Virus record (IMG/VR): IMGVR_UViG_3300037755_000497
Location: 44,876-108,875 of that record
Direction: 5' to 3' (one strand)
From: a virus
DNA: 64,000 nucleotides
This document shows, piece after piece, positions 3 to 48,303 of this stretch. The notes under the pieces were generated by a model that was not told the DNA's origin, did no database searches, and saw only the letters and a program-made list of their open reading frames with translations. The position numbers and the translations under genes were made by a program. Each line of letters opens with the position of its first letter. The stretch's first letter is position 1.

Positions 3-809
3 TTTACCTTTTGTGTCAGTTTTTGCTTTTGATTTTTTTCCTTTCGGTGCTTCCTTTACTTTTGACTTTTTACCTTTTTTAGGCTTTTCGTCTTCGTCTT
101 CATCTTCATCTTCGTCTTCATCTTCGTCTTCTTCGTCTTCGTCTTCATCTTCATCTTCGTCTTCTTCTTCTTCATCTTCGTCTTCGTCTTCATCTTCGTC
201 TTCGTCTTCATCTTCGTCTTCGTCTTCATCTTCGTCTTCGTCTTCATCTTCGTCTTCGTCTTCGTCTTCGTCTTCTTCGTCTTCTTCGTCTTCTTCTTCG
301 TCTTCTTCTTCGTCTTCTTCTTCGTCTTCTTCGTCTTCGTCTTCTTCTTCGTCTTCTTCGTCTTCTTCATCAGAATCATCTTCATCAGAATCATTTTCAT
401 CTTCATCAGAATCATCATCTTCTTCGTCTTCTTCGTCTTCTTCGTCTTCTTCGTCTTCATCACCATCTTCTTCATCATCTTCTAAAGATTCTTTACAATA
501 TGGACAATGATCTTCACCAACTAAAATATCAGAACCACAAACTGGGCAACCACCAAAGCTTCCAGAATCTTGGCCTTCGGCCGCTGCTAATCTTACAGTT
601 TCAATTTGGTCAGCGAATAACCTGGAAGCAACAAGTGTGTTTGTAACACCAGCTAACTCTGTTAAGAAATGCATTAAGTTTAAATCGTCACCAGCTGGCA
701 CTTCAATTTTCTGTGCTTCACAAAACTTTTGAAGCGCACCAAATAATTTTTCATAGTTTGGTTTTGATTTCTTTTCTTTTTTTGATTTTGTTTTTGACTT
801 CTTAGCCAT
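3..809 (-). CDS. Zn-ribbon protein with very long poly-Asp/Glu tract and Lys-rich tail (3' end runs out of the window; missed by the ORF track)
   Basis: ATG at 809 with AGAGGT SD; reads MAKKSKTKSKK...GGCPVCGSDILVGEDHCPYCKESL, then ~132 codons (87-482) almost all D/E, then KPKKGKKSKVKEAPKGKKSKAK; no stop before the window edge. Confidence 0.9.
   Translation of the reverse strand, partial: MAKKSKTKSKKEKKSKPNYEKLFGALQKFCEAQKIEVPAGDDLNLMHFLTELAGVTNTLVASRLFADQIETVRLAAAEGQDSGSFGGCPVCGSDILVGEDHCPYCKESLEDDEEDGDEDEEDEEDEEDEEDDDSDEDENDSDEDDSDEEDEEDEEEDEDEEDEEEDEEEDEEEDEEDEEDEDEDEDEDEDEDEDEDEDEDEDEDEDEDEDEDEEEEDEDEDEDEDEEDEDEDEDEDEDEDEKPKKGKKSKVKEAPKGKKSKAKTDTKGK
87..482 (-). repeat. Low-complexity GAA/GAC/GAT trinucleotide tract encoding poly-D/E
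   Basis: Plus strand is continuous tcttcg/tcttca/tcttct; only a few G, S and N codons interrupt it. Confidence 0.95.
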
Positions 810-848
810 TTGATACCTCTTTTTTTTATTTGTTAAAAATCCCTGTTA

Positions 849-1040
849 TTAAAAATCTGTAGCTTTAACAGTTTTCCTATTATTATTAATACATCTTTGC
901 TGGGCATCAGCTATCATAAGGTAGACTTTTTCATTTAGCTTTTCTAATGCTTCACTTGAAACATTAAGACCAGTTGACTTAAGTGCTTCTTTTGTTTTTG
1001 AACCTATTAACAACATTTCCTTTCCTTGCTTACTTCCCAT
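849..1040 (-). CDS. Prokaryotic histone-fold protein (short-alpha3 type, resembling Leptospira/face-to-face histones and Bdellovibrio Bd0055)
   Basis: 63 aa: LLIGSKTKEALK (a1), GLNVSSEALEKLNEKVYLMIADAQQRC (L1/a2), RKTVKATDF with the RxTxxxxD histone signature at the C-terminus; AAAGGAG SD. Confidence 0.85.
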   Translation of the reverse strand: MGSKQGKEMLLIGSKTKEALKSTGLNVSSEALEKLNEKVYLMIADAQQRCINNNRKTVKATDF

Positions 1041-2583
1041 TTTTATTTCTCCTTTGAATTACGCTTACGCTACTGTAAGTGTTTAGAATGGTTTTACCTT
1101 TTCTTCTTAGCTTCTCACTTTTTGTATCCCATAGAAAATCGAAAGTTGGTTTACTTTTTTTACCAAATAATTTCCTTAATACATCATCGTAGTCACGTTC
1201 TACCCTACCCTTCATCTGGTTAAAGTCTTGGATGTTTATAGGGATGGTGCATATACCATGGTCAAAAGTTTTTATACTTAAACCAGCAATACCTTTTCTT
1301 GTTGTTATTACAACATCAAATTGTTTTTTAATTCCCAGATTTATAATGTCAAAGAATTCTTTGTCAGCACTATATGCCAGCATAAATTCTTTCCAATCTT
1401 CTTTCCAATCTTCTTTATCGTTAATTTCTTGTTTGCTAACGTTACCAACCAACAACTTCACACGCAAATTTTTATTTAATAATTTTTCTCTTAAATACAA
1501 TCCTTGCCATCTTCTTTCAACAAAAATAATTACTATTTTTTTCTTCTTGACTTTTTGAAGCGTCCTGTTGATTACAATTTTGTTCCTTTTTTTATCTCTG
1601 GCCATATTGTAAAGAAGTTCAGTGTTGTTACTTGTATCGTCATAATCATCACCATCGTAATCAGTTGGCACTAAATTTATTTTTGCTGGTAGCCTAGAAC
1701 CTAAATCTGTATCAGGTATGATGTGAATTAATTTTCCAAACAAATCATAAATTAAATATTCTTTCCCATCTTTTCTTTTTTCATCAGCACTAAGTCCTAT
1801 TCTAAATTTTGCTGGACATAAATCTAAACAACCATTGAATGAAGCCGCCCCATATCTTTGAACTTCATCAGCTATTAATATTCCACACACTGGGTAATAT
1901 AAATCTTGGTTTGATTTGTTTCTTAAACTTTGAACCATACAAACATTTATTTTACCAACTTTCCTATTCCCAGGATAAGGTAAATCAGGGAAAGATTCTG
2001 TCCACGCTTTTTTTGTTGCGAATACGCCACCAGCACCACCTATGTCTTCTAATTTTAAATTTAATAAATCATTTCTTAGTGCTTCTTTAATCCATTGTAT
2101 CTGGTGAATCTTTTCCCATAGTACAACTAGACCAACTTGTTCACTTCTTGCAATTGCTTCTAAACCTATTACAGATTTACCACAAGAACATGGGCCGCGA
2201 ACAATTCCCTGTTTCTTTTTTAAAATTATTTTTACAGCTTTCTCTTGGTCTTTTCTTAGGATTGTTTTTGAATCATATTCCGTTTTTTTTGTTACACGTT
2301 TAAATTTTATAACAACATCATGGTTTCGTTTTCTTAGTTCTTTTTTTATTCTTGGTAAGCAACCACGTGTGAATCTTATAACTTTTTTATCATCACTTAT
2401 TTTAAAACTTTCGTAAATTTCAGGTTCATTGTCTGTTGGAAGCCCCATTCTTTCCATACGGATGTACATTGGGTTTATGTGTTTACATAATTTTTTTAGA
2501 TTAAGGATTGCCCTTCTATCATCTTTTAAAAGTTTTTTGTAACTCAAACTTGCGTGTGAATCAACCTTGATTTTTACCTTCAA
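1030..2583 (-). CDS. Superfamily 2 DNA helicase (UvsW/SSL2-like)
   Basis: Q-motif LRKDQEKAV, Walker A GPCSCGKS, Walker B ILIADEVQ, motif III GLSA, motif VI QMKGRVER. Confidence 0.9.
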   Translation of the reverse strand: MKVKIKVDSHASLSYKKLLKDDRRAILNLKKLCKHINPMYIRMERMGLPTDNEPEIYESFKISDDKKVIRFTRGCLPRIKKELRKRNHDVVIKFKRVTKKTEYDSKTILRKDQEKAVKIILKKKQGIVRGPCSCGKSVIGLEAIARSEQVGLVVLWEKIHQIQWIKEALRNDLLNLKLEDIGGAGGVFATKKAWTESFPDLPYPGNRKVGKINVCMVQSLRNKSNQDLYYPVCGILIADEVQRYGAASFNGCLDLCPAKFRIGLSADEKRKDGKEYLIYDLFGKLIHIIPDTDLGSRLPAKINLVPTDYDGDDYDDTSNNTELLYNMARDKKRNKIVINRTLQKVKKKKIVIIFVERRWQGLYLREKLLNKNLRVKLLVGNVSKQEINDKEDWKEDWKEFMLAYSADKEFFDIINLGIKKQFDVVITTRKGIAGLSIKTFDHGICTIPINIQDFNQMKGRVERDYDDVLRKLFGKKSKPTFDFLWDTKSEKLRRKGKTILNTYSSVSVIQRRNKNGK

Positions 2584-2606: not shown

Positions 2607-2897
2607 TTAAACACCGAATAATTCCTTGAAAGGCAAATCAGTGTTCAACAAAATAAAATTTCCTTCGGGTTGTAGCAAGTCATCGGCCGCAAGTAAAACC
2701 TTTTCAAGTTTTTCTGCACCTGTACCACTTAGCATAATTTTTTCATTGCGCTGTAGCAGTAAGGCCAAGTTATTCGTGAATTCACGAATTTTAGGGTGAA
2801 TAATTTCAATTTCTTCAACTGCATCGACCATGCTTCTTCTTCCCATTTTTTTTCTGTGTTTAGTAATCATCAAGAAAATTTTCTTGGTTGTCAACAA
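2607..2897 (-). CDS. Hypothetical protein (start uncertain)
   Basis: ORF in the operon direction, closely packed with its neighbours. Confidence 0.55.
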   Translation of the reverse strand: MLTTKKIFLMITKHRKKMGRRSMVDAVEEIEIIHPKIREFTNNLALLLQRNEKIMLSGTGAEKLEKVLLAADDLLQPEGNFILLNTDLPFKELFGV

Positions 2898-3093
2898 AGT
2901 TTTCAGGAAAATATTCTGGCACGCTCTGCATTAAGTCCCAAACATCATCTAGGCCTTCCCATTGGCCATTAACAAAAACAAATATTTCACCGCTGAATTT
3001 ATCCTGCGCATAAAGAAACCCATCAGTGCCATAGATTAAATCAAATTCATTTGCATTGAATTTTTTATTATTGAAATTTTCATGTCCCAGCAA
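2860..3093 (-). CDS. Small acidic hypothetical protein
   Basis: TTG start preceded by an AAGGA SD. Confidence 0.6.
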   Translation of the reverse strand: MLGHENFNNKKFNANEFDLIYGTDGFLYAQDKFSGEIFVFVNGQWEGLDDVWDLMQSVPEYFPENFVDNQENFLDDY

Positions 3094-3229: not shown

Positions 3230-3603
3230 CCAAACTTTGATTGCTGGAAAACATGTTACGTTAAAACATTGGAACATTGAAACGTTGGATTGCTGGAAAA
3301 CATTCAAAACATAATTTCTGGTGAAAAACAAAAACAAGAAAAAATTGTTAGAAAATTTATTTTCTATATGTATTTATTCTATAATAATATATTCTATACT
3401 TAAGACCCCCCAAAATATGTTCCCGAAAAACTTGTTTGCGGTAACAGAATATGTTCCTGAAACGGTACAAAATATGTTCCTGAAAAACATACCTTTTTCG
3501 GTAACAGAATATGTTCCTGAAAACATGTTTTAAAACTTAATTTGTATGTTTTTCGGTAACAGATACTAGGGGGTAGTGCATAACAGGAACATAATATGTT
3601 CCT
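3230..3603. repeat. Iteron-like repeat cluster with AT-rich segment; putative replication origin
   Basis: AATATGTTCC x5 (about 3414, 3448, 3471, 3508, 3593); CGGTAACAGA x3 (3439, 3499, 3554); ~52-55 bp unit duplicated (3411-3462, 3468-3522); inverted repeat AGGAACAT-AAT-ATGTTCCT at 3585-3603; TTGCTGGAAAACAT x2; AT-rich 3321-3400. Confidence 0.65.
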
Positions 3604-4024
3604 AATCAATTTTAAGTTTTTTAGCTGATTTCCTTAATTTACTTTCACCAGGAACAAGAAGCACTTCCCATTTAGTAAACTTGATTCTTCTTCTACCTAA
3701 ACCATTTTCACCATCAAAAACTGAAATGTCTGTATAAGATGTTAAACCATCTTTGGTTTTGATGTAGTAATGCGGCTTAAGCATTTTCTTCTTTTCCAGT
3801 GACTTCAAAATTATTTCAACACGCTTTTTTGGGTAGCCAAATTCTTTTACTATCTGGTGAACTTGAATCATTGAAATACCCCGTTCACCTTTTTTATTTG
3901 GGAATGCGCATTCTCTTAATAGTAAGTAGAAACTAAATTCTTGATAGGTTATCAGACCTTTCCTGTAGGCATGGTGTAATGCGAATAAATTAATTCTTTG
4001 TTTCTCAAATATAGATAGCTTCAC
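3602..4024 (-). CDS. Winged-helix DNA-binding protein, possible replication initiator
   Basis: Basic; EFSFYLLL...ISMIQVHQIVKEFGYPKKRVEIILKSLEKKKML fits a wHTH pattern; lies directly next to the iterons. Confidence 0.5.
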   Translation of the reverse strand: MKLSIFEKQRINLFALHHAYRKGLITYQEFSFYLLLRECAFPNKKGERGISMIQVHQIVKEFGYPKKRVEIILKSLEKKKMLKPHYYIKTKDGLTSYTDISVFDGENGLGRRRIKFTKWEVLLVPGESKLRKSAKKLKID

Positions 4025-4428
4025 TATTCTTCCCCTAGTTCTTTGAACAGTAGGTAAGAACGTTTCATTCCACGGATTCCAAGTTTCAAAGCTGCTTTAT
4101 AATTATTTACTTTTAAAACTTTCCCTTCAACAACTTCAAATTCATAAATAGTAGATAGCAATTTTATTTTTTTCAGTTTTCTAATATGATAGTCAATTAC
4201 TGAACCATCTATATTTTTTAAACGTTTTTTTGCTTGATTGATTTCTTCCAAACTTAGTTCATTAATTGGTTCTTTAATGTGGGCCAAGTCTGTTAACAGT
4301 ATATAAAAGGCCGCTGTGGCCCATGACATCGAACCCCTACTAACTAAGTTAAAAGCTACATCGGTTCTTAATTTTTTTAATTCTAACAAGTCCTGTTTGG
4401 ACACTTTATTTCTTTTCATCACCATCAC
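4024..4428 (-). CDS. Winged-helix-like DNA-binding protein, likely paralog of 3602-4024
   Basis: AAFYILL...IDYHIRKLKKIKLLSTIY parallels the neighbour; stop/start overlap. Confidence 0.45.
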   Translation of the reverse strand: MMVMKRNKVSKQDLLELKKLRTDVAFNLVSRGSMSWATAAFYILLTDLAHIKEPINELSLEEINQAKKRLKNIDGSVIDYHIRKLKKIKLLSTIYEFEVVEGKVLKVNNYKAALKLGIRGMKRSYLLFKELGEE

Positions 4429-4703: not shown

Positions 4704-4768
4704 TTGCCAGAAAGTGAAAAAGTATGTTATACTTAGTTATACGATGTTATTGTATAACAATGTAGAAC
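4704..4768 (+). promoter_or_regulatory. Sigma70-type promoter of the RHH gene, overlapped by a GTTATAC array
   Basis: TTGCCA-N18-TATACT with TGn extension; GTTATAC at 4726 and 4736, GTTAT at 4746, inverted GTATAAC at 4752 and GTAGAAC at 4762. Confidence 0.7.
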
Positions 4769-4782
4769 GGGATGGTGATGGT

Positions 4783-5025
4783 ATGGCTAAGAAAAAGATT
4801 CAACGTAAGGTATCAAAAATTACAACCCCAAAGGTCGATTTTGGGGCCAAAGACAAGATGAAGGCCTTTAGGTGTTCTAAGGTAATAGCTGAACTGCTAG
4901 ACAAGGAAGATAACGCTTCTGAAACGATAAATAAGGCCATATTAGAGTATCTAAGCAAGAAACTAATAGAATGTCCAACCTGTAAAGGTAAGGGCCAAAT
5001 ACGGCCCCATAAAGAGTGTAAATAA
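4783..5025 (+). CDS. Ribbon-helix-helix transcription regulator with a C-terminal CxxCxGxG Zn-knuckle; the only convincing plus-strand gene
   Basis: KMKAFRCSKVIAELLDKEDNASETINKAILEYL (beta strand-helix-helix), then CPTCKGKG; ATG at 4783 after GGTGATGG. Confidence 0.65.
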   Translation: MAKKKIQRKVSKITTPKVDFGAKDKMKAFRCSKVIAELLDKEDNASETINKAILEYLSKKLIECPTCKGKGQIRPHKECK

Positions 5026-36651: not shown

Positions 36652-37304
36652 TTTTTATCCCTATGTTCCCCATCTTTAGCACCACGTTTTTTCCACATAT
36701 CTTCGATAGCTTTTCTCCAATTTTCTTGTAGAACTCTATCAATAGTTGGGTCTTCTTCAAAAACTTTACTAAAAACTTTTCTTGATGGAACAGTTAATGT
36801 ACTACCAGTTTTCATACTGCTTACCGATCTTTTTTTAGTCGAACTACCTTTTCCTTCTTTCTTACTAAGTGCTATTGCTATAGCTTTCTTCATTTTATCA
36901 GTTACAGTTATGTCATAGCCTTCTTCCATTAACTCAACAAGTGTTTCCATACTTATTTGGCTTTTTGCTTTACCAAATTGGCTACCAGTTGAACCAGCTT
37001 TTTTTATAATACCAACTTCAACTTCAAAAGCACTTTTCATTTTAAAATCAATAGCGTTCCAAAGATTTCTTTGGTTAAGTAAAGGTAAATCTGAATTCTT
37101 CATTGCTAAAGTTAATTCAGAATTACTGTCAAATTCACGGTTCCTAATATTGTCTTTTACTTTTTTTATTAGGAATAGGTAATTCCTAATTGTGCCTTTT
37201 CTAATGGCATTAACTAAATCACTTTGTGCAGTTCCAGGTTTAATAAACTTTTCAAAGTTCTTTATGTCACCAGTAAATGTGAAACTTGCTGGGTTACTTG
37301 CCAT
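36648..37304 (-). CDS. Neck / virion morphogenesis protein
   Basis: NSELT..K.S..PL..., EEG, VPSRKVF pattern. Confidence 0.65.
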   Translation of the reverse strand: MASNPASFTFTGDIKNFEKFIKPGTAQSDLVNAIRKGTIRNYLFLIKKVKDNIRNREFDSNSELTLAMKNSDLPLLNQRNLWNAIDFKMKSAFEVEVGIIKKAGSTGSQFGKAKSQISMETLVELMEEGYDITVTDKMKKAIAIALSKKEGKGSSTKKRSVSSMKTGSTLTVPSRKVFSKVFEEDPTIDRVLQENWRKAIEDMWKKRGAKDGEHRDKK

Positions 37305-44385: not shown

Positions 44386-44775
44386 TTATTTCCTTTCCTT
44401 TAAATTATCCAAGGCCCATGTCCTATTTCTAATTTTCACCAAATCCGTTCTGGAAAGAATCGGTGGTGGTGGGTTTTTGTAAGTGTAAACCATAATGGAA
44501 AGTTGAATGTTGTCAGCTTGACAAATTAACCTTTCACCTAGTTCACGTTCCACACCCTTTTTTTCCTTAGTAACAAGTTCGGCCATAAACCGCACCCTGC
44601 TAAATCCTTTTGGAAAAGGAAGTGTGTGAAATTTTTTATTGTGAAGAACTCCAATACCAGTTATCCTGTCCTGGAAGTCTTTCACGGATGACCATTCCAA
44701 CCACTGTTTCACGTCATCTTCTTTTTTCAAATCAAATTCAAGTGTGCTTCCATCCTTGAAGTTCAACTTAATCAT
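44386..44775 (-). CDS. Hypothetical protein
   Basis: AAGGA SD before ATG 44775. Confidence 0.7.
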   Translation of the reverse strand: MIKLNFKDGSTLEFDLKKEDDVKQWLEWSSVKDFQDRITGIGVLHNKKFHTLPFPKGFSRVRFMAELVTKEKKGVERELGERLICQADNIQLSIMVYTYKNPPPPILSRTDLVKIRNRTWALDNLKERK

Positions 44776-44830
44776 GGTGTTTCCTTTTGTGCTTAGGTGC
44801 CAATTAAGATTCACACTTACTTAAACCGTT

Positions 44831-45154
44831 TTATCTTCTGTTCTTTTTCTTCCCAGTTCTGCTTTCTTCCTGTGCTTTAGCTTCCTTCTCAACAGCTTTT
44901 TCTTCCAACTTTTTAGGTTCAGATTCCTTGGCCGCTTGCTTATCAGCTTGTGGTTCCATTACGGACAACACTCTTAGCTTAGGTAACATGTGCGCATGAG
45001 TTTTTTTAATATGCTCATATTCGTCTTCTGTTACCGCCAACTGTCTTCCAGGATTGACGTGTAAGGCCCCTTTACAAGAACGCTTACAGTCTTTCCCAAA
45101 TTTCTCAACACATTCAGGGGCATCACCGTAATACACAATTAAATATTTTTTCAT
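44831..45154 (-). CDS. Hypothetical protein with charged tail
   Basis: GGGGA SD before ATG 45154. Confidence 0.7.
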   Translation of the reverse strand: MKKYLIVYYGDAPECVEKFGKDCKRSCKGALHVNPGRQLAVTEDEYEHIKKTHAHMLPKLRVLSVMEPQADKQAAKESEPKKLEEKAVEKEAKAQEESRTGKKKNRR

Positions 45155-45189
45155 GTTCAGTTCCCCACTTATTTTCAAGTTTTAAAAAA

Positions 45190-45480
45190 TTACTTTTTAC
45201 TGGATTTTTTGCCAGCTTTTTTCTTGCTTGAAGACTTTAATTTTTTATCAGACTTGCTTTTCTTTTGGTCACCTTCACTTGAAGATTTTTTCTTTTTCTT
45301 AGCCGCTTCCTTTGGTTCTAATTCTGTACAACTAAATCTACCATTGTTAGCAAATTCTTGACATGCGCTACCACGTACAATTTTTGGTACATTTCTGATG
45401 AATTTTTCCCCAGCAAGTGTATAAGTTTTCCCTCTAATCAAAGTAACTTTTGCCCGTCTAATTAATTTTTCTGTTGCCAT
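45190..45480 (-). CDS. Basic protein with Lys/Ser-rich tail
   Basis: AAGGA SD; KKKKKSSS...KKSSKK tail; follows the major capsid gene. Confidence 0.7.
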   Translation of the reverse strand: MATEKLIRRAKVTLIRGKTYTLAGEKFIRNVPKIVRGSACQEFANNGRFSCTELEPKEAAKKKKKSSSEGDQKKSKSDKKLKSSSKKKAGKKSSKK

Positions 45481-45536
45481 TTGTGCTTCCTTTGTTATTG
45501 CCAAATATAGCTGTTAATAAGTTTCAATACAACAAT

Positions 45537-45559
45537 GGGGCCTATTATTGGAAGACCCC
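45537..45559 (-). terminator. Hairpin after the major capsid gene
   Basis: GGGGUCU...AGGCCCC followed by AUUGUUGUAUU. Confidence 0.5.
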
Positions 45560-45572
45560 GAAACCAGTTAAA

Positions 45573-46880
45573 TTAGTTTAATCCGATGTTGATACCAAGA
45601 ACACAAGCATCAGTTTCTTCCATTTGAACAGCAACCCTTGCGGTCATTGCAAATTCAGTTACAGAAGAATAGATATTTCTATCTTTTTCAACTTGAATAT
45701 CACGGCCAATACCTAGAATCATGTTTCTGAATTCTGTTAACCACATTTGAGATTGTGATAGGTAAGAAATCTTAACATCACTTGGTGAAGATAAAGCACC
45801 GCCACCGTTTCTTGCGATTGTCCCAGCTGCATAATCCATGTCATAGTCAACGCCTTCAACGTAAGGTGTAACTGGTGAAAGTGGGTTATCATCAATTGAT
45901 TGAAGAACAACAGTTTCGCCACCAACAACTAGGTTCTTGTGATCTAGGGCAACAGGTGTTGTACCAGTCAAAGTAACGTGTTGAGTGATAAGCGGTGTCT
46001 GTGGTAACAATGCTAAAGGAACAAGTTCAATACCAAATGGCATTAAATTCATTTCAGAAGTAGCGGCTTGGTCACCAAGTCCTGTTGCACGTGCAGCAAG
46101 ATTGTTTCTGAAAAGTTGTTCAGTTGTATCAGAGATAAAGAATTTAAGATTTCTCTTATTCTTCTTAAACTTAGATGGCATTTCAACAATCATGTCACTA
46201 AATACTTGGTGACTGATGTTTTGCCCATCATGGTCAACAACGTGAGATTGTCCAGCAAGTTTTAACCAACCATCTTGAAGCTTAAGATATGTATCAACGA
46301 TAACATCAGTAGGTGAACCACCATCAACTAAGTCACCTTCTGGAACAACAGCACCTAACTTGTCACCTTGAATGTAAAGTTCTTCAAGGTCGTTAGACAT
46401 TTGTGTTGCCATCAAACGCATAATTGTATCTTCAACTCTTTCGCCTTCCAAGTTTTCCATTACGAATTCATCAGAAAGTTCCCATGGAACCATGATTTCT
46501 TCTGGTTGCAATGTAACTTTTGAGAAGTTAGCTTTTCTTCTAACACCTGGGTCTTTAGCTTCTTTCTTAGCTACGGCAACACGTCTACCAACACCAATTT
46601 TGTCGATGTCTAGTTTGTCGTTTCTGAAACGTACAACACGTGTTTTACCTTTAAGACCAGTTACATCAATAACGAAATCAATGAACATGTCAGCTTGCGC
46701 ATCATTCAATCTACCAGCGGCCGCAATATCAGCTGTAGTTATGGCCGCCTTTTGAAGAATTTCTTCATTCGACATACCTTTTTCTAATTCTTTGTCTTCT
46801 GCTACTGCTTTTTTCAATTCAGCATTTTCAGTTTCAAGTGCCTTCAATCTTTCTTCAACAGTCAATTCCTTCTTAGCCAT
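45573..46880 (-). CDS. Major capsid protein (HK97 fold)
   Basis: N-terminal coiled coil; AGRLNDAQADMFIDFV, ENLEGE..EDTIM, DLEELYIQGD, DGWLK, MPSKFK. Confidence 0.92.
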   Translation of the reverse strand: MAKKELTVEERLKALETENAELKKAVAEDKELEKGMSNEEILQKAAITTADIAAAGRLNDAQADMFIDFVIDVTGLKGKTRVVRFRNDKLDIDKIGVGRRVAVAKKEAKDPGVRRKANFSKVTLQPEEIMVPWELSDEFVMENLEGERVEDTIMRLMATQMSNDLEELYIQGDKLGAVVPEGDLVDGGSPTDVIVDTYLKLQDGWLKLAGQSHVVDHDGQNISHQVFSDMIVEMPSKFKKNKRNLKFFISDTTEQLFRNNLAARATGLGDQAATSEMNLMPFGIELVPLALLPQTPLITQHVTLTGTTPVALDHKNLVVGGETVVLQSIDDNPLSPVTPYVEGVDYDMDYAAGTIARNGGGALSSPSDVKISYLSQSQMWLTEFRNMILGIGRDIQVEKDRNIYSSVTEFAMTARVAVQMEETDACVLGINIGLN

Positions 46881-46953: not shown

Positions 46954-48303
46954 TTATTTTCTCTTTAAGTTACGCTGTTTCCTTTGGATATTTTTTGAAA
47001 TATCAGAAAGGCCAACAAGATTACTAAAAACAGATTCACCTTTTTCAACTTCATCATCAGCATCAGATTCTTCTTCATCATCATCGCCTAGATTGAAACT
47101 AGCACCCCCTGATTGCTCGATGTCTTCAAGTTTGGTGTTTATTTTTTCCAGTTTTGAATCAATGTCTTCCTTAAAGCTGGAAGAAGAAGTTTTTAATTCT
47201 TCTTTAATTTCTTCCTTAAAGCTATCAAGTGACTTTTGAAGTTCGGTCATGGCACTTTTTGTCACGCCTTTTCTTGAATCATTGTTTAAAACAGATTCAA
47301 TAAGTTCGGACAATTTACCTGCGATTTCACGCAATACGGCCATTCTTTTACCAGAAATTTTTGCACCAGCCTTTTCAACATCTTGACGAACAGACTTGAT
47401 ACTATCATTAATGCTTGTAAAAATTGATTCTTGTTCTTTAGCTTTTTCGCTGTCACCTTCTTCTTTTCTTTCGGCCATCATTGCCATAAGCATGTCGATG
47501 GATGCAAAAGTAAGAGATACAACTTCATTCAATGCACCAGCTGCAAAATCATGTAGCTCTAAACTTCTTTCAAGCATACCCGAAACATCTTCAAGATTTT
47601 TTTCTAGCTTAACAACTCTTTTAGAAAGTTCATCATTATCCAATTCTGAATCATCTTCACTTTCATCTTCTTCACTGGTTGCAGTACCAGCTGCTTTATT
47701 TTTTCCTGATTCGTCTTCATCTTCTGAATCTTCATCATCAGCGTCTTCTTCATCGCCTTCTTCTGATTCGTCTTCATCTTCTGAATCTTCATCATCTTTT
47801 TTGTCTTTATCTTTGCCTTCATCATCAGCTTCTTCTTCTGATTCGTCTTCATCTTCTGAATCTTCATCAGCTTTTGTTACTTCGTGAAGTTTTACATCTG
47901 GGTAAGATTCTTTGAATTTTTCAATGTCAAAACTAAATGTACAACATTGATCGAAAACACCTTTTTCAAAATGTTCTAAAGCACATCCAATACAAACGCT
48001 ATTCCTTAGTCCAGCACCCATTGTTTCAGCTTCCACTTCTTTAGTTATCCCACAAAAGTGACAGTGTTCACCACACTTGTCTGAATCAGCTTTCGCAATT
48101 TTTTCAGACCACTTAGGCATAGCTTTAATAAGTGGTAATTTTTTTACTTTGGCCACTTTTGCCCCCTTTTTATTGTTTTTATTAACACTTTTTGTTATAT
48201 AGAATGATTCACCAATAGCCGCCATATCAACAGCTGATACTTCATCAACTTCTAAATCAAAGATTTCCTTTACACCCTTCTGAACTTTTTTTGTCTTAGC
48301 CAT
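46954..48303 (-). CDS. Capsid scaffold-like protein with a Cys cluster and acidic repeats
   Basis: DLEVDEVSAVD..A N-terminus, KAGAKISGKR motif, coiled coils; lies between the protease and capsid genes. Confidence 0.7.
   Translation of the reverse strand: MAKTKKVQKGVKEIFDLEVDEVSAVDMAAIGESFYITKSVNKNNKKGAKVAKVKKLPLIKAMPKWSEKIAKADSDKCGEHCHFCGITKEVEAETMGAGLRNSVCIGCALEHFEKGVFDQCCTFSFDIEKFKESYPDVKLHEVTKADEDSEDEDESEEEADDEGKDKDKKDDEDSEDEDESEEGDEEDADDEDSEDEDESGKNKAAGTATSEEDESEDDSELDNDELSKRVVKLEKNLEDVSGMLERSLELHDFAAGALNEVVSLTFASIDMLMAMMAERKEEGDSEKAKEQESIFTSINDSIKSVRQDVEKAGAKISGKRMAVLREIAGKLSELIESVLNNDSRKGVTKSAMTELQKSLDSFKEEIKEELKTSSSSFKEDIDSKLEKINTKLEDIEQSGGASFNLGDDDEEESDADDEVEKGESVFSNLVGLSDISKNIQRKQRNLKRK
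47706..47869. repeat. 32-bp direct repeat x3 encoding DEDSEDEDES
   Basis: ctgattcgtcttcatcttctgaatcttcatca at 47706, 47763 and 47838. Confidence 0.9.

Follow-up and report, generated by a model that had tools for sequence, protein, structure and literature searches.

Does a phage that carries a histone gene also carry dedicated machinery to handle that histone? The question is raised by three adjoining minus-strand genes at the left end of a 64,000-nucleotide stretch of viral DNA (hereafter the window), which corresponds to bases 44876-108875 of the IMG/VR record IMGVR_UViG_3300037755_000497 (108,875 bp; referred to here as G000 and estimated to be 76% complete). G000 is a tailed phage with a contractile tail, for which a large terminase, portal, capsid protein, protease and tail sheath are recognisable. 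As the open reading frame (ORF) listing confirms, the three genes lie side by side and encode a 517-aa XPB/Rad25-like superfamily 2 (SF2) helicase or translocase (1030-2583), a 63-aa histone of the alpha3-truncated, face-to-face (HLp) type (849-1040) and an acidic zinc-ribbon protein (1-809, listed as an ORF at 3-809). A first-pass annotation had grouped them as a phage chromatin module in which the acidic protein acts as a chaperone for the histone and the helicase possibly as a motor. The reading favoured here, with moderate confidence, is that the histone was inserted later, from a Bacteriovoracia chromosome, into an older replication pair made up of the helicase and the acidic protein, and that the acidic protein works independently of the phage histone.

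The proposal that this phage encodes its own histone is upheld by both a sequence match and a structural model. In a sequence search of the PDB, the 63-aa protein aligns without gaps to HLp of Leptospira perolatii (9qt0; E-value: 9e-11); its Pfam match to PF00808 is below threshold (E-value: 0.046). An AlphaFold model built from 20 homologues (predicted local distance difference test [pLDDT] score 77.6) has helices at residues 14-22 and 29-52 and a three-residue alpha3 (60-62). The histone fold of this model is matched by HLp (template modelling [TM] score 0.73-0.81, 45% identity), HBb (0.75, 30% identity), archaeal HTkC (0.71-0.77) and then eukaryotic H4. Residues S14, K15, K17, K21, R49, N53, R55, T57 and D62 are invariant among the 20 homologues. 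In the HLp tetramer, the interface is formed by R49, S52 and N53 touching F63, T61 and R55, the clamp is R55-D62, and the chief DNA binders are S14, K15, K17, K21 and R59 (PMC12701072). At identical numbering, the phage protein retains R49, N53, R55, T61 and F63 of the interface, the R55-D62 clamp and the DNA contacts S14, K15, K17 and K21, with lysine at position 59. It also has the RxTxxxD motif, as R55-K-T-V-K-A-T-D62. Its fold with a shortened alpha2 and an alpha3 of three to four residues, its interface residues and its RD clamp are those by which the face-to-face class is recognised, and the protein is a genuine face-to-face (HLp-type) bacterial histone. By analogy with HLp, it would form tetramers and coat DNA.

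HLp (PDB 9QT0/9QT1/9QT2; PMC12701072) and the phage protein are of equal length and share the truncated alpha3 fold. The phage copy differs by the substitutions S52->N, K54->N, T56->K, R59->K, T27->V and G29->S and is encoded by a phage within a replication operon. Two other histone classes were considered and rejected. HBb (Bd0055) of Bdellovibrio bacteriovorus (PDB 8CMP, 8FVX, 9EZZ) shares the alpha3-truncated fold and the RKTxxxD motif, but HBb-type "bacterial dimers" are set apart by having lost the R and N residues through which dimers touch each other (Schwab et al., PMC11390915), whereas in the phage protein R49 and N53 are both present and invariant, and identity to HBb is 30%. The class named "phage histones" combines an alpha3 histone fold with a C-terminal tetramerisation helix and lacks RxTxxxD (Schwab et al. 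2024, PMC11390915). The protein encoded here ends at F63 without such a helix and has RKTxxxD.

The gene order in related phages, which were reached through homologues of the helicase, does not support the grouping of histone, chaperone and motor. In a 98.7-kb relative (G001, 94% complete), 134 ORFs of G000 are matched with a mean identity of 56% (ORFs of at least 50 aa in all six frames), and the replication region is fully syntenic. In this genome a gene for a homologue of the acidic protein (53% identity) begins only a few nucleotides after the helicase stop codon. In the G001 assembly, the acidic gene lies in two pieces at the contig ends (G001:C1:98181-98729 and 6-497), with the break within the Asp/Glu repeat. 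This low-complexity sequence seems to have interrupted the assembly of a genome that is otherwise closed as a circle or has terminal redundancy. In a second relative (G002; 106 kb, with terminal repeats, 100% complete), the acidic gene overlaps the helicase gene by 4 nt, and the helicase gene has an intein-like insert. Two more distant phage fragments (L170 and L171) share the order helicase, zinc-ribbon protein with an acidic C-terminus, one gene, primase-helicase, two small genes and PolA, and the acidic protein of L171 is a family member by profile (E-value: 2.5e-7). The helicase/acidic junctions in these four are overlaps of 4-23 nt or a gap of a few nucleotides. A histone profile that recovered the G000 gene as positive control (E-value: 9e-39) gave no match at E ≤ 1 in any of G001, G002, L170 and L171. 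Because the two genes are directly adjacent in all four, and because the near-complete G001 and G002 carry no histone anywhere, the helicase and the acidic protein are probably an ancestral, tightly linked pair of this phage group that is older than the histone.

The first-pass annotation had suggested a neighbourhood search for linkage between the histone and poly-acidic zinc-ribbon genes, and had named homologous phages that keep the helicase and acidic protein without the histone as the outcome that would speak against a module. That outcome is what was found, and the module reading fails because of it. In addition, four further histone-bearing viral contigs from IMG/VR (L005-L008) have neither the helicase nor the acidic protein within ~3.5 kb. 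Their histones are more distant members of the same superfamily and lie among unrelated neighbours, such as nucleotide kinases. The L007 histone is a fused doublet of 117 aa, that of L006 has a 35-residue Lys/Glu N-terminal tail and that of L008 a 30-residue acidic N-terminal extension.

The site of insertion appears to be shared with other phages. When every phage ORF was compared against ~160 cellular and metagenome histone loci, one locus alone (L029) shared another gene of the phage locus. In this 1.7-kb contig a helicase (49% identity) is directly followed by a histone (67% identity), and an insertion site in common with G000 is proposed because the two genes stand in the same order. Contigs of 100,610 and 94,673 bp recur in the match lists of both the histone and the helicase, the co-occurrence being deduced from identical sizes only. 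In a helicase tree, G001 falls among phages that carry the histone (G000, L029 and the two contigs paired by size), and G002, L170 and L171 lie outside. This pattern suggests one histone insertion between two older genes followed by loss in G001; several independent gains may also have occurred.

The histone was probably captured from a chromosomal face-to-face histone of a Bacteriovoracia host, because its identity to chromosomal histones of that lineage is 73-82% and it is placed inside the bacterial clade. When one genome per prokaryotic species was scanned, 168 relatives were returned. Of these, the best 80 were examined by taxon; with a few exceptions from Gemmatimonadota, Omnitrophota and others, they lie on chromosomes of Bacteriovoracaceae, Halobacteriovoraceae or other Bdellovibrionota (up to 82% identity). 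Among the matches listed, the closest cellular relatives are chromosomal histones of Bacteriovoracaceae and Halobacteriovoraceae, from metagenome-assembled genomes (73-82% identity). These have the same length and motifs as the phage protein and represent the likely donor lineage, but the cellular loci have no genes of this phage nearby. In a quick maximum-likelihood tree (65 columns, weak support), the window protein and other phage-linked histones are nested in the Bacteriovoracia clade on longer branches, that of the phage histone being 0.39 against a median of 0.046. No histone match was present in 50,697 GenBank phage records, and in scans of viral contigs the single-protein queries (histone, helicase) returned nothing, whereas alignment-based queries did find relatives. 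A search for the major capsid protein in 401 Bdellovibrionota genomes gave one weak match (32% identity) and so no independent support for the host.

The acidic protein has a more elaborate architecture than the window displays. Its gene (G000 44587-45684) runs 288 nt past the window start, and the window holds the first 269 of 365 residues. The N-terminal part (486-809) consists of a Lys-rich start (residues 1-16), a helical domain (17-80) and a C4 zinc ribbon (84-108) of the form CxxC...CxxC. The Asp/Glu tract (87-482; residues 110-241) contains 127 Asp or Glu among 132 residues, so the zinc ribbon and the tract of ~130 residues originally described are both real. The Lys-rich stretch that had been taken for the end of the protein is a basic linker, which starts at residue 242 (1-86) and continues beyond the window; it leads into a helical C-terminal domain and a second lysine tail. 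The long helix, the SAP/HeH-like domain (residues ~290-340) and the lysine tail all lie outside the window. In the structural model, the N-terminal part has helices at residues 19-32 and 45-78 (pLDDT ~80) and strands at 85-96, the Asp/Glu tract is disordered (pLDDT ~50), and the C-terminal domain has helices within residues 271-336 (pLDDT 85-95). Conserved residues in the family are F29, C30, L45, F48, P89, G92 and L109.

By profile comparison, the acidic protein is a member of a small phage family. A word-index query with its N-terminal domain gave no matches, and the relatives came from an exhaustive HMMER search, from which 12 sequences were fetched and used (E-values: 1.7e-18 to 5.6e-4). 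The family profile matches in G000, G001, G002 and G004. The family was not detected in four Bacteriovoracia genomes with this profile, which was validated on the phage genomes.

The C-terminal domain is predicted, at modest Z scores, to be SAP/HeH-like. With VIA-align it resembles the SAP domain of Ku70 (Z 5.0, root-mean-square deviation 2.3, 52 residues aligned) and the Rho N-terminal domain (Z 4.8), values that lie in the chance range for small helical domains, as do those for at least six further SAP/LEM domains (Z 3.4-4.3). An atlas search leads to Rho_N, SAP and Ish1; Pfam gives no SAP match at E ≤ 0.1. For the N-terminal part there are weak zinc-ribbon matches in Pfam, and its atlas search returned generic zinc-ribbon clusters only. 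Foldseek found nothing for the protein below an E-value of 0.8 except small zinc-finger look-alikes. Histone-chaperone families were also looked for: Pfam at thresholds of E ≤ 0.1 to 1 lists zinc-ribbon families only, and neither Foldseek nor VIA-align revealed a chaperone fold. The acidic protein thus resembles known histone chaperones (nucleoplasmin, NAP, ASF1 and others) in composition only. Its SAP-like fold combined with acidic stretches is also reminiscent of eukaryotic SAP-domain acidic proteins such as DEK (8kcy, Z 4.0); Pfam scans detected no sequence homology to DEK, nucleoplasmin or NAP1.

Long acidic tracts are not confined to this protein. The gp32-like single-stranded DNA-binding protein (SSB) of the same phage (P0036; 396 aa), encoded on the minus strand outside the window (G000:C1:36761-37951; L002:1439-2629), has a 96-residue Asp/Glu tract and a lysine tail. 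It matches phrog_224 weakly but over its full length (E-value: 9.4e-5, residues 65-328 against profile positions 60-307 of 318). The SSB of G001 has an 83-residue acidic tract. Because SSBs carry them, giant acidic tracts appear to be a recurrent trait of this group's replication proteins and not a mark of a histone neighbour. An acidic tail of such length is unusual for an SSB. T4 gp32 and T7 gp2.5 carry short acidic C-terminal tails and are likewise DNA-binding replication proteins, but the tract here is about ten times longer. The first 37 nt of the SSB gene and the acidic gene are identical, spanning the ribosome-binding site and first codons, and the tract of the acidic gene has 76% nucleotide identity to that of the SSB gene (G000 36823-37139). 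Full paralogy of the two was considered and rejected: they have in common no more than the initial 37 nt, the low-complexity tract and the lysine tail, and in family scans the acidic protein has no match to the SSB family phrog_224. A 449-aa head-module protein (46954-48303, minus strand), which weakly matches the head maturation protease family phrog_3017 (E-value: 0.0044), contains a third such stretch; at the nucleotide level it is 75% identical to the tract of the acidic gene.

The helicase is XPB-like by sequence, although it is not an equivalog of XPB. It is assigned to phrog_16 ("DNA helicase"; E-value: 1.3e-25) and has the Pfam domain ResIII (PF04851; E-value: 1.7e-7); at E ≤ 1 only ResIII, DEAD and Helicase_C are listed. 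Against the PDB, its family profile aligns over both lobes (positions 83-453) with Sulfolobus XPBII (6p4f/5tnu; E-value: 1e-19), and also with Archaeoglobus XPB (AfXPB, 2FWR) and human XPB. The NCBIfam XPB model is matched at an E-value of 6.7e-12, with 44.7 bits against a cut-off of 610. XPB has the triplet RED after motif III; the phage protein has R-K-D in this place, and R270 and D272 are invariant in 16 homologues. Its N-terminal 100 residues have no assignment. Archaeal XPB works with a partner, Bax1, that is encoded beside it, whereas the neighbour of the phage helicase is not Bax1-like. A chromatin remodeller of the Snf2 type was ruled out: Pfam lists no SNF2 family at E ≤ 1, and the PDB profile search (E ≤ 0.01) gave mainly XPB-type helicases, one "putative helicase", Dicer-related helicases and UvrB, with no Snf2 enzyme. 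The first-pass annotation had cautioned that the helicase could simply be an ordinary UvsW-like replication enzyme, and this caveat holds in that an everyday role in replication or repair is plausible for it. A complex prediction of the helicase with the acidic N-terminal domain scored 0.00 and was run without controls, so it is evidence neither for nor against an interaction.

Several replication proteins of the group vary in length. The helicase has 517 aa in G000, 782 aa in G002 (L172:5765-8113) and 857 aa in P0042 (PF14528), the RecA-like protein has 745 aa in G000 (C1:30815-33052) against 372 aa in G001, and the primase-helicase has 984 aa in G001 against 629 aa in G000. These differences in length suggest the presence of inteins.

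Both gene junctions in the window are as first described, with an overlap of 11 nt between the helicase stop and the histone start (1030-1040) and a gap of 39 nt between the histone stop and the acidic gene (810-848). Scans for promoters and terminators between the three genes gave no signal above chance. This fits co-transcription, which is probable, though it falls short of proof. The three genes are part of a string of DNA-replication genes in a large myovirus. From a candidate origin the string runs through two small genes, the XPB-like helicase, the histone and the acidic zinc-ribbon/SAP protein to an HNH endonuclease, and continues with a primase-helicase, PolA, the gp32-like SSB, UvrD, FEN and a RecA-like protein. 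The primase-helicase, PolA, SSB and further replication genes downstream are syntenic in G001 and G002.

The two small genes upstream of the helicase in the same string, both on the minus strand, encode proteins of 96 aa (2607-2897) and 77 aa (2860-3093) with 57% and 40% identity, respectively, to G001 ORFs in the same order; the Pfam and phrog libraries give no assignment for either. Further upstream, an intergenic region of 500 nt contains an iteron-like cluster (3405-3607) of at least five CAGAATATGTTCCTGAAA-type repeats and a palindromic copy. Judging by its sequence and position, this cluster is a candidate replication origin or operator. Two small genes next to it (3602-4428) have weak matches to DnaD-like loader and replication-initiator families; for the 140-aa gene at 3602-4024 these are phrog_186 (E-value: 0.019) and phrog_428 (E-value: 0.053). 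The sole plus-strand gene in the region (4714-5025) encodes a small protein with a CxxC motif at its end. No tRNA genes were found in the window. The DNA sequencing runs that match the locus are two sediment metagenomes, and no RNA run is among those listed.

A model for the function of these genes can be proposed on the reading that a captured histone was added to an older helicase-acidic pair. The histone would be made together with the replication proteins and would form HLp-like tetramers that wrap or bridge DNA without sequence preference. It could thereby coat replicating phage DNA, supplementing or mixing with the host histone. The acidic protein would act independently of the phage histone, as a replisome or helicase accessory factor tethered to DNA via its SAP-like domain and lysine-rich segments. 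Its Asp/Glu tract may be an electrostatic DNA-like, auto-inhibitory or protein-recruiting arm, comparable to the shorter tails of T4 gp32 and T7 gp2.5. Several points count against this model. The host assignment is drawn from the histone alone, and the tree from which the direction and number of transfers are read is small and weakly supported. Absence of the histone from G001 may be a secondary loss, in which case the three genes may still work together in some members of the clade. Lastly, the N-terminal domain of the acidic protein has no known fold match beyond the zinc ribbon, and a role for this protein is suggested by architecture and position only.

Other explanations must be weighed against the same evidence. 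If the locus were a dedicated chromatin module, with the acidic protein as chaperone of the phage histone and the helicase as remodelling motor, the tight adjacency and probable co-transcription of the three genes would be accounted for, as would the recurrence of helicase followed by histone in L029. The placement of a 132-residue Asp/Glu tract between basic segments, together with a SAP-like domain, also suits this idea, since such a make-up resembles that of eukaryotic acidic histone-binding proteins such as DEK or nucleolin. However, near-complete related phages have the helicase and acidic protein without a histone, other histone-bearing phages lack both neighbours, the helicase is XPB-like with no Snf2 family at E ≤ 1, no histone-chaperone family is matched at E ≤ 0.1, and the SSB of the same phage bears a similar tract. 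A dedicated module is thus very improbable. Phages are known to inhibit nucleoid proteins, as T4 Arn and T7 gp5.5 do with H-NS, and the acidic protein could similarly be a DNA mimic or polyanion sponge directed against host histones in all phages of the group that infect histone-bearing Bacteriovoracia, the phage histone then replacing or resisting the stripped host histone. The host lineage suggested by the histone is one in which histones are major nucleoid proteins (PMC10627809, PMC11789641). Moreover, the long acidic tract is always combined with basic blocks in the acidic family, and the absence of this family from the four Bacteriovoracia genomes searched indicates that it is phage-specific. 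Nevertheless, the way in which the acidic gene regularly overlaps the helicase gene and its place in the replisome gene string point to a replication partner, and the acidic tracts of the SSBs suggest a replisome-wide habit over an anti-histone weapon. A sponge of this type is considered unlikely.

The histone could also be a neutral passenger (moron) that was lately taken from the host and contributes nothing to the phage cycle. Its patchy occurrence among close relatives, including its absence in G001, and its strong similarity to host genes would be expected of such a gene. Yet the same site is kept in diverged phages whose helicases share 49-55% identity, most of the HLp DNA-contact and interface residues are invariant across the 20 homologues, the phage-linked ones included, and the overlap of the histone start with the helicase stop fits integrated expression; a passenger without function is accordingly rather improbable. 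A further, speculative possibility, also with little probability, is that the acidic family is a phage polyanionic histone sponge or chaperone that strips or handles Bacteriovoracia HLp-type histones at the replication fork together with the XPB-like translocase, some phages having added a captured histone to re-coat their own DNA. If true, it would be the first case in bacteria of a system for handling histones that is encoded by a virus.

Bacterial histones have been recognised as working chromatin proteins only since 2023, and phage copies emerged from metagenome mining in 2024. Bacterial-like and face-to-face histones (VFFH) encoded by Caudoviricetes have been described from IMG/VR (preprint 10.1101/2024.12.06.627149). 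Like the protein encoded here, which also comes from an IMG/VR record, these face-to-face-like histones are predicted to be tetramers, and acquisition from hosts was proposed for them; they differ in having N-terminal lysine tails of 5-40 residues, compared with ~8 residues before the fold in this protein. The original statement that no phage histone-chaperone system had been described must therefore be qualified, as phage histones were already reported. In the main text of that preprint a helicase is never mentioned, "acidic" occurs once, for the C-terminal helices of some histone triplets, and "chaperone" occurs twice, in one case for known histone-chaperone domains in a hidden Markov model survey (10.1101/2024.12.06.627149). 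No earlier description could be found of the gene neighbourhood, of the insertion site, of a link to Bacteriovoracia or of the acidic family.

The locus is a well-resolved case of an HLp-type histone, ~80% identical to those of predatory Bacteriovoracia, at a defined insertion point in a myovirus replication operon. A histone-chaperone-remodeller system does not fit the comparative genomics, since the flanking pair persists without the histone. Two by-products of the analysis are a small uncharacterised phage family that combines a zinc ribbon, a giant Asp/Glu tract and a SAP-like domain and is paired with an XPB-like helicase, and an SSB with a long acidic tail. For the biology of these phages, the histone ties a phage to a bacterial host that uses histones in a way that can be tested, and G000 (with the histone) and G001 (without it) offer a natural comparison for the benefit that a phage may gain from carrying one.

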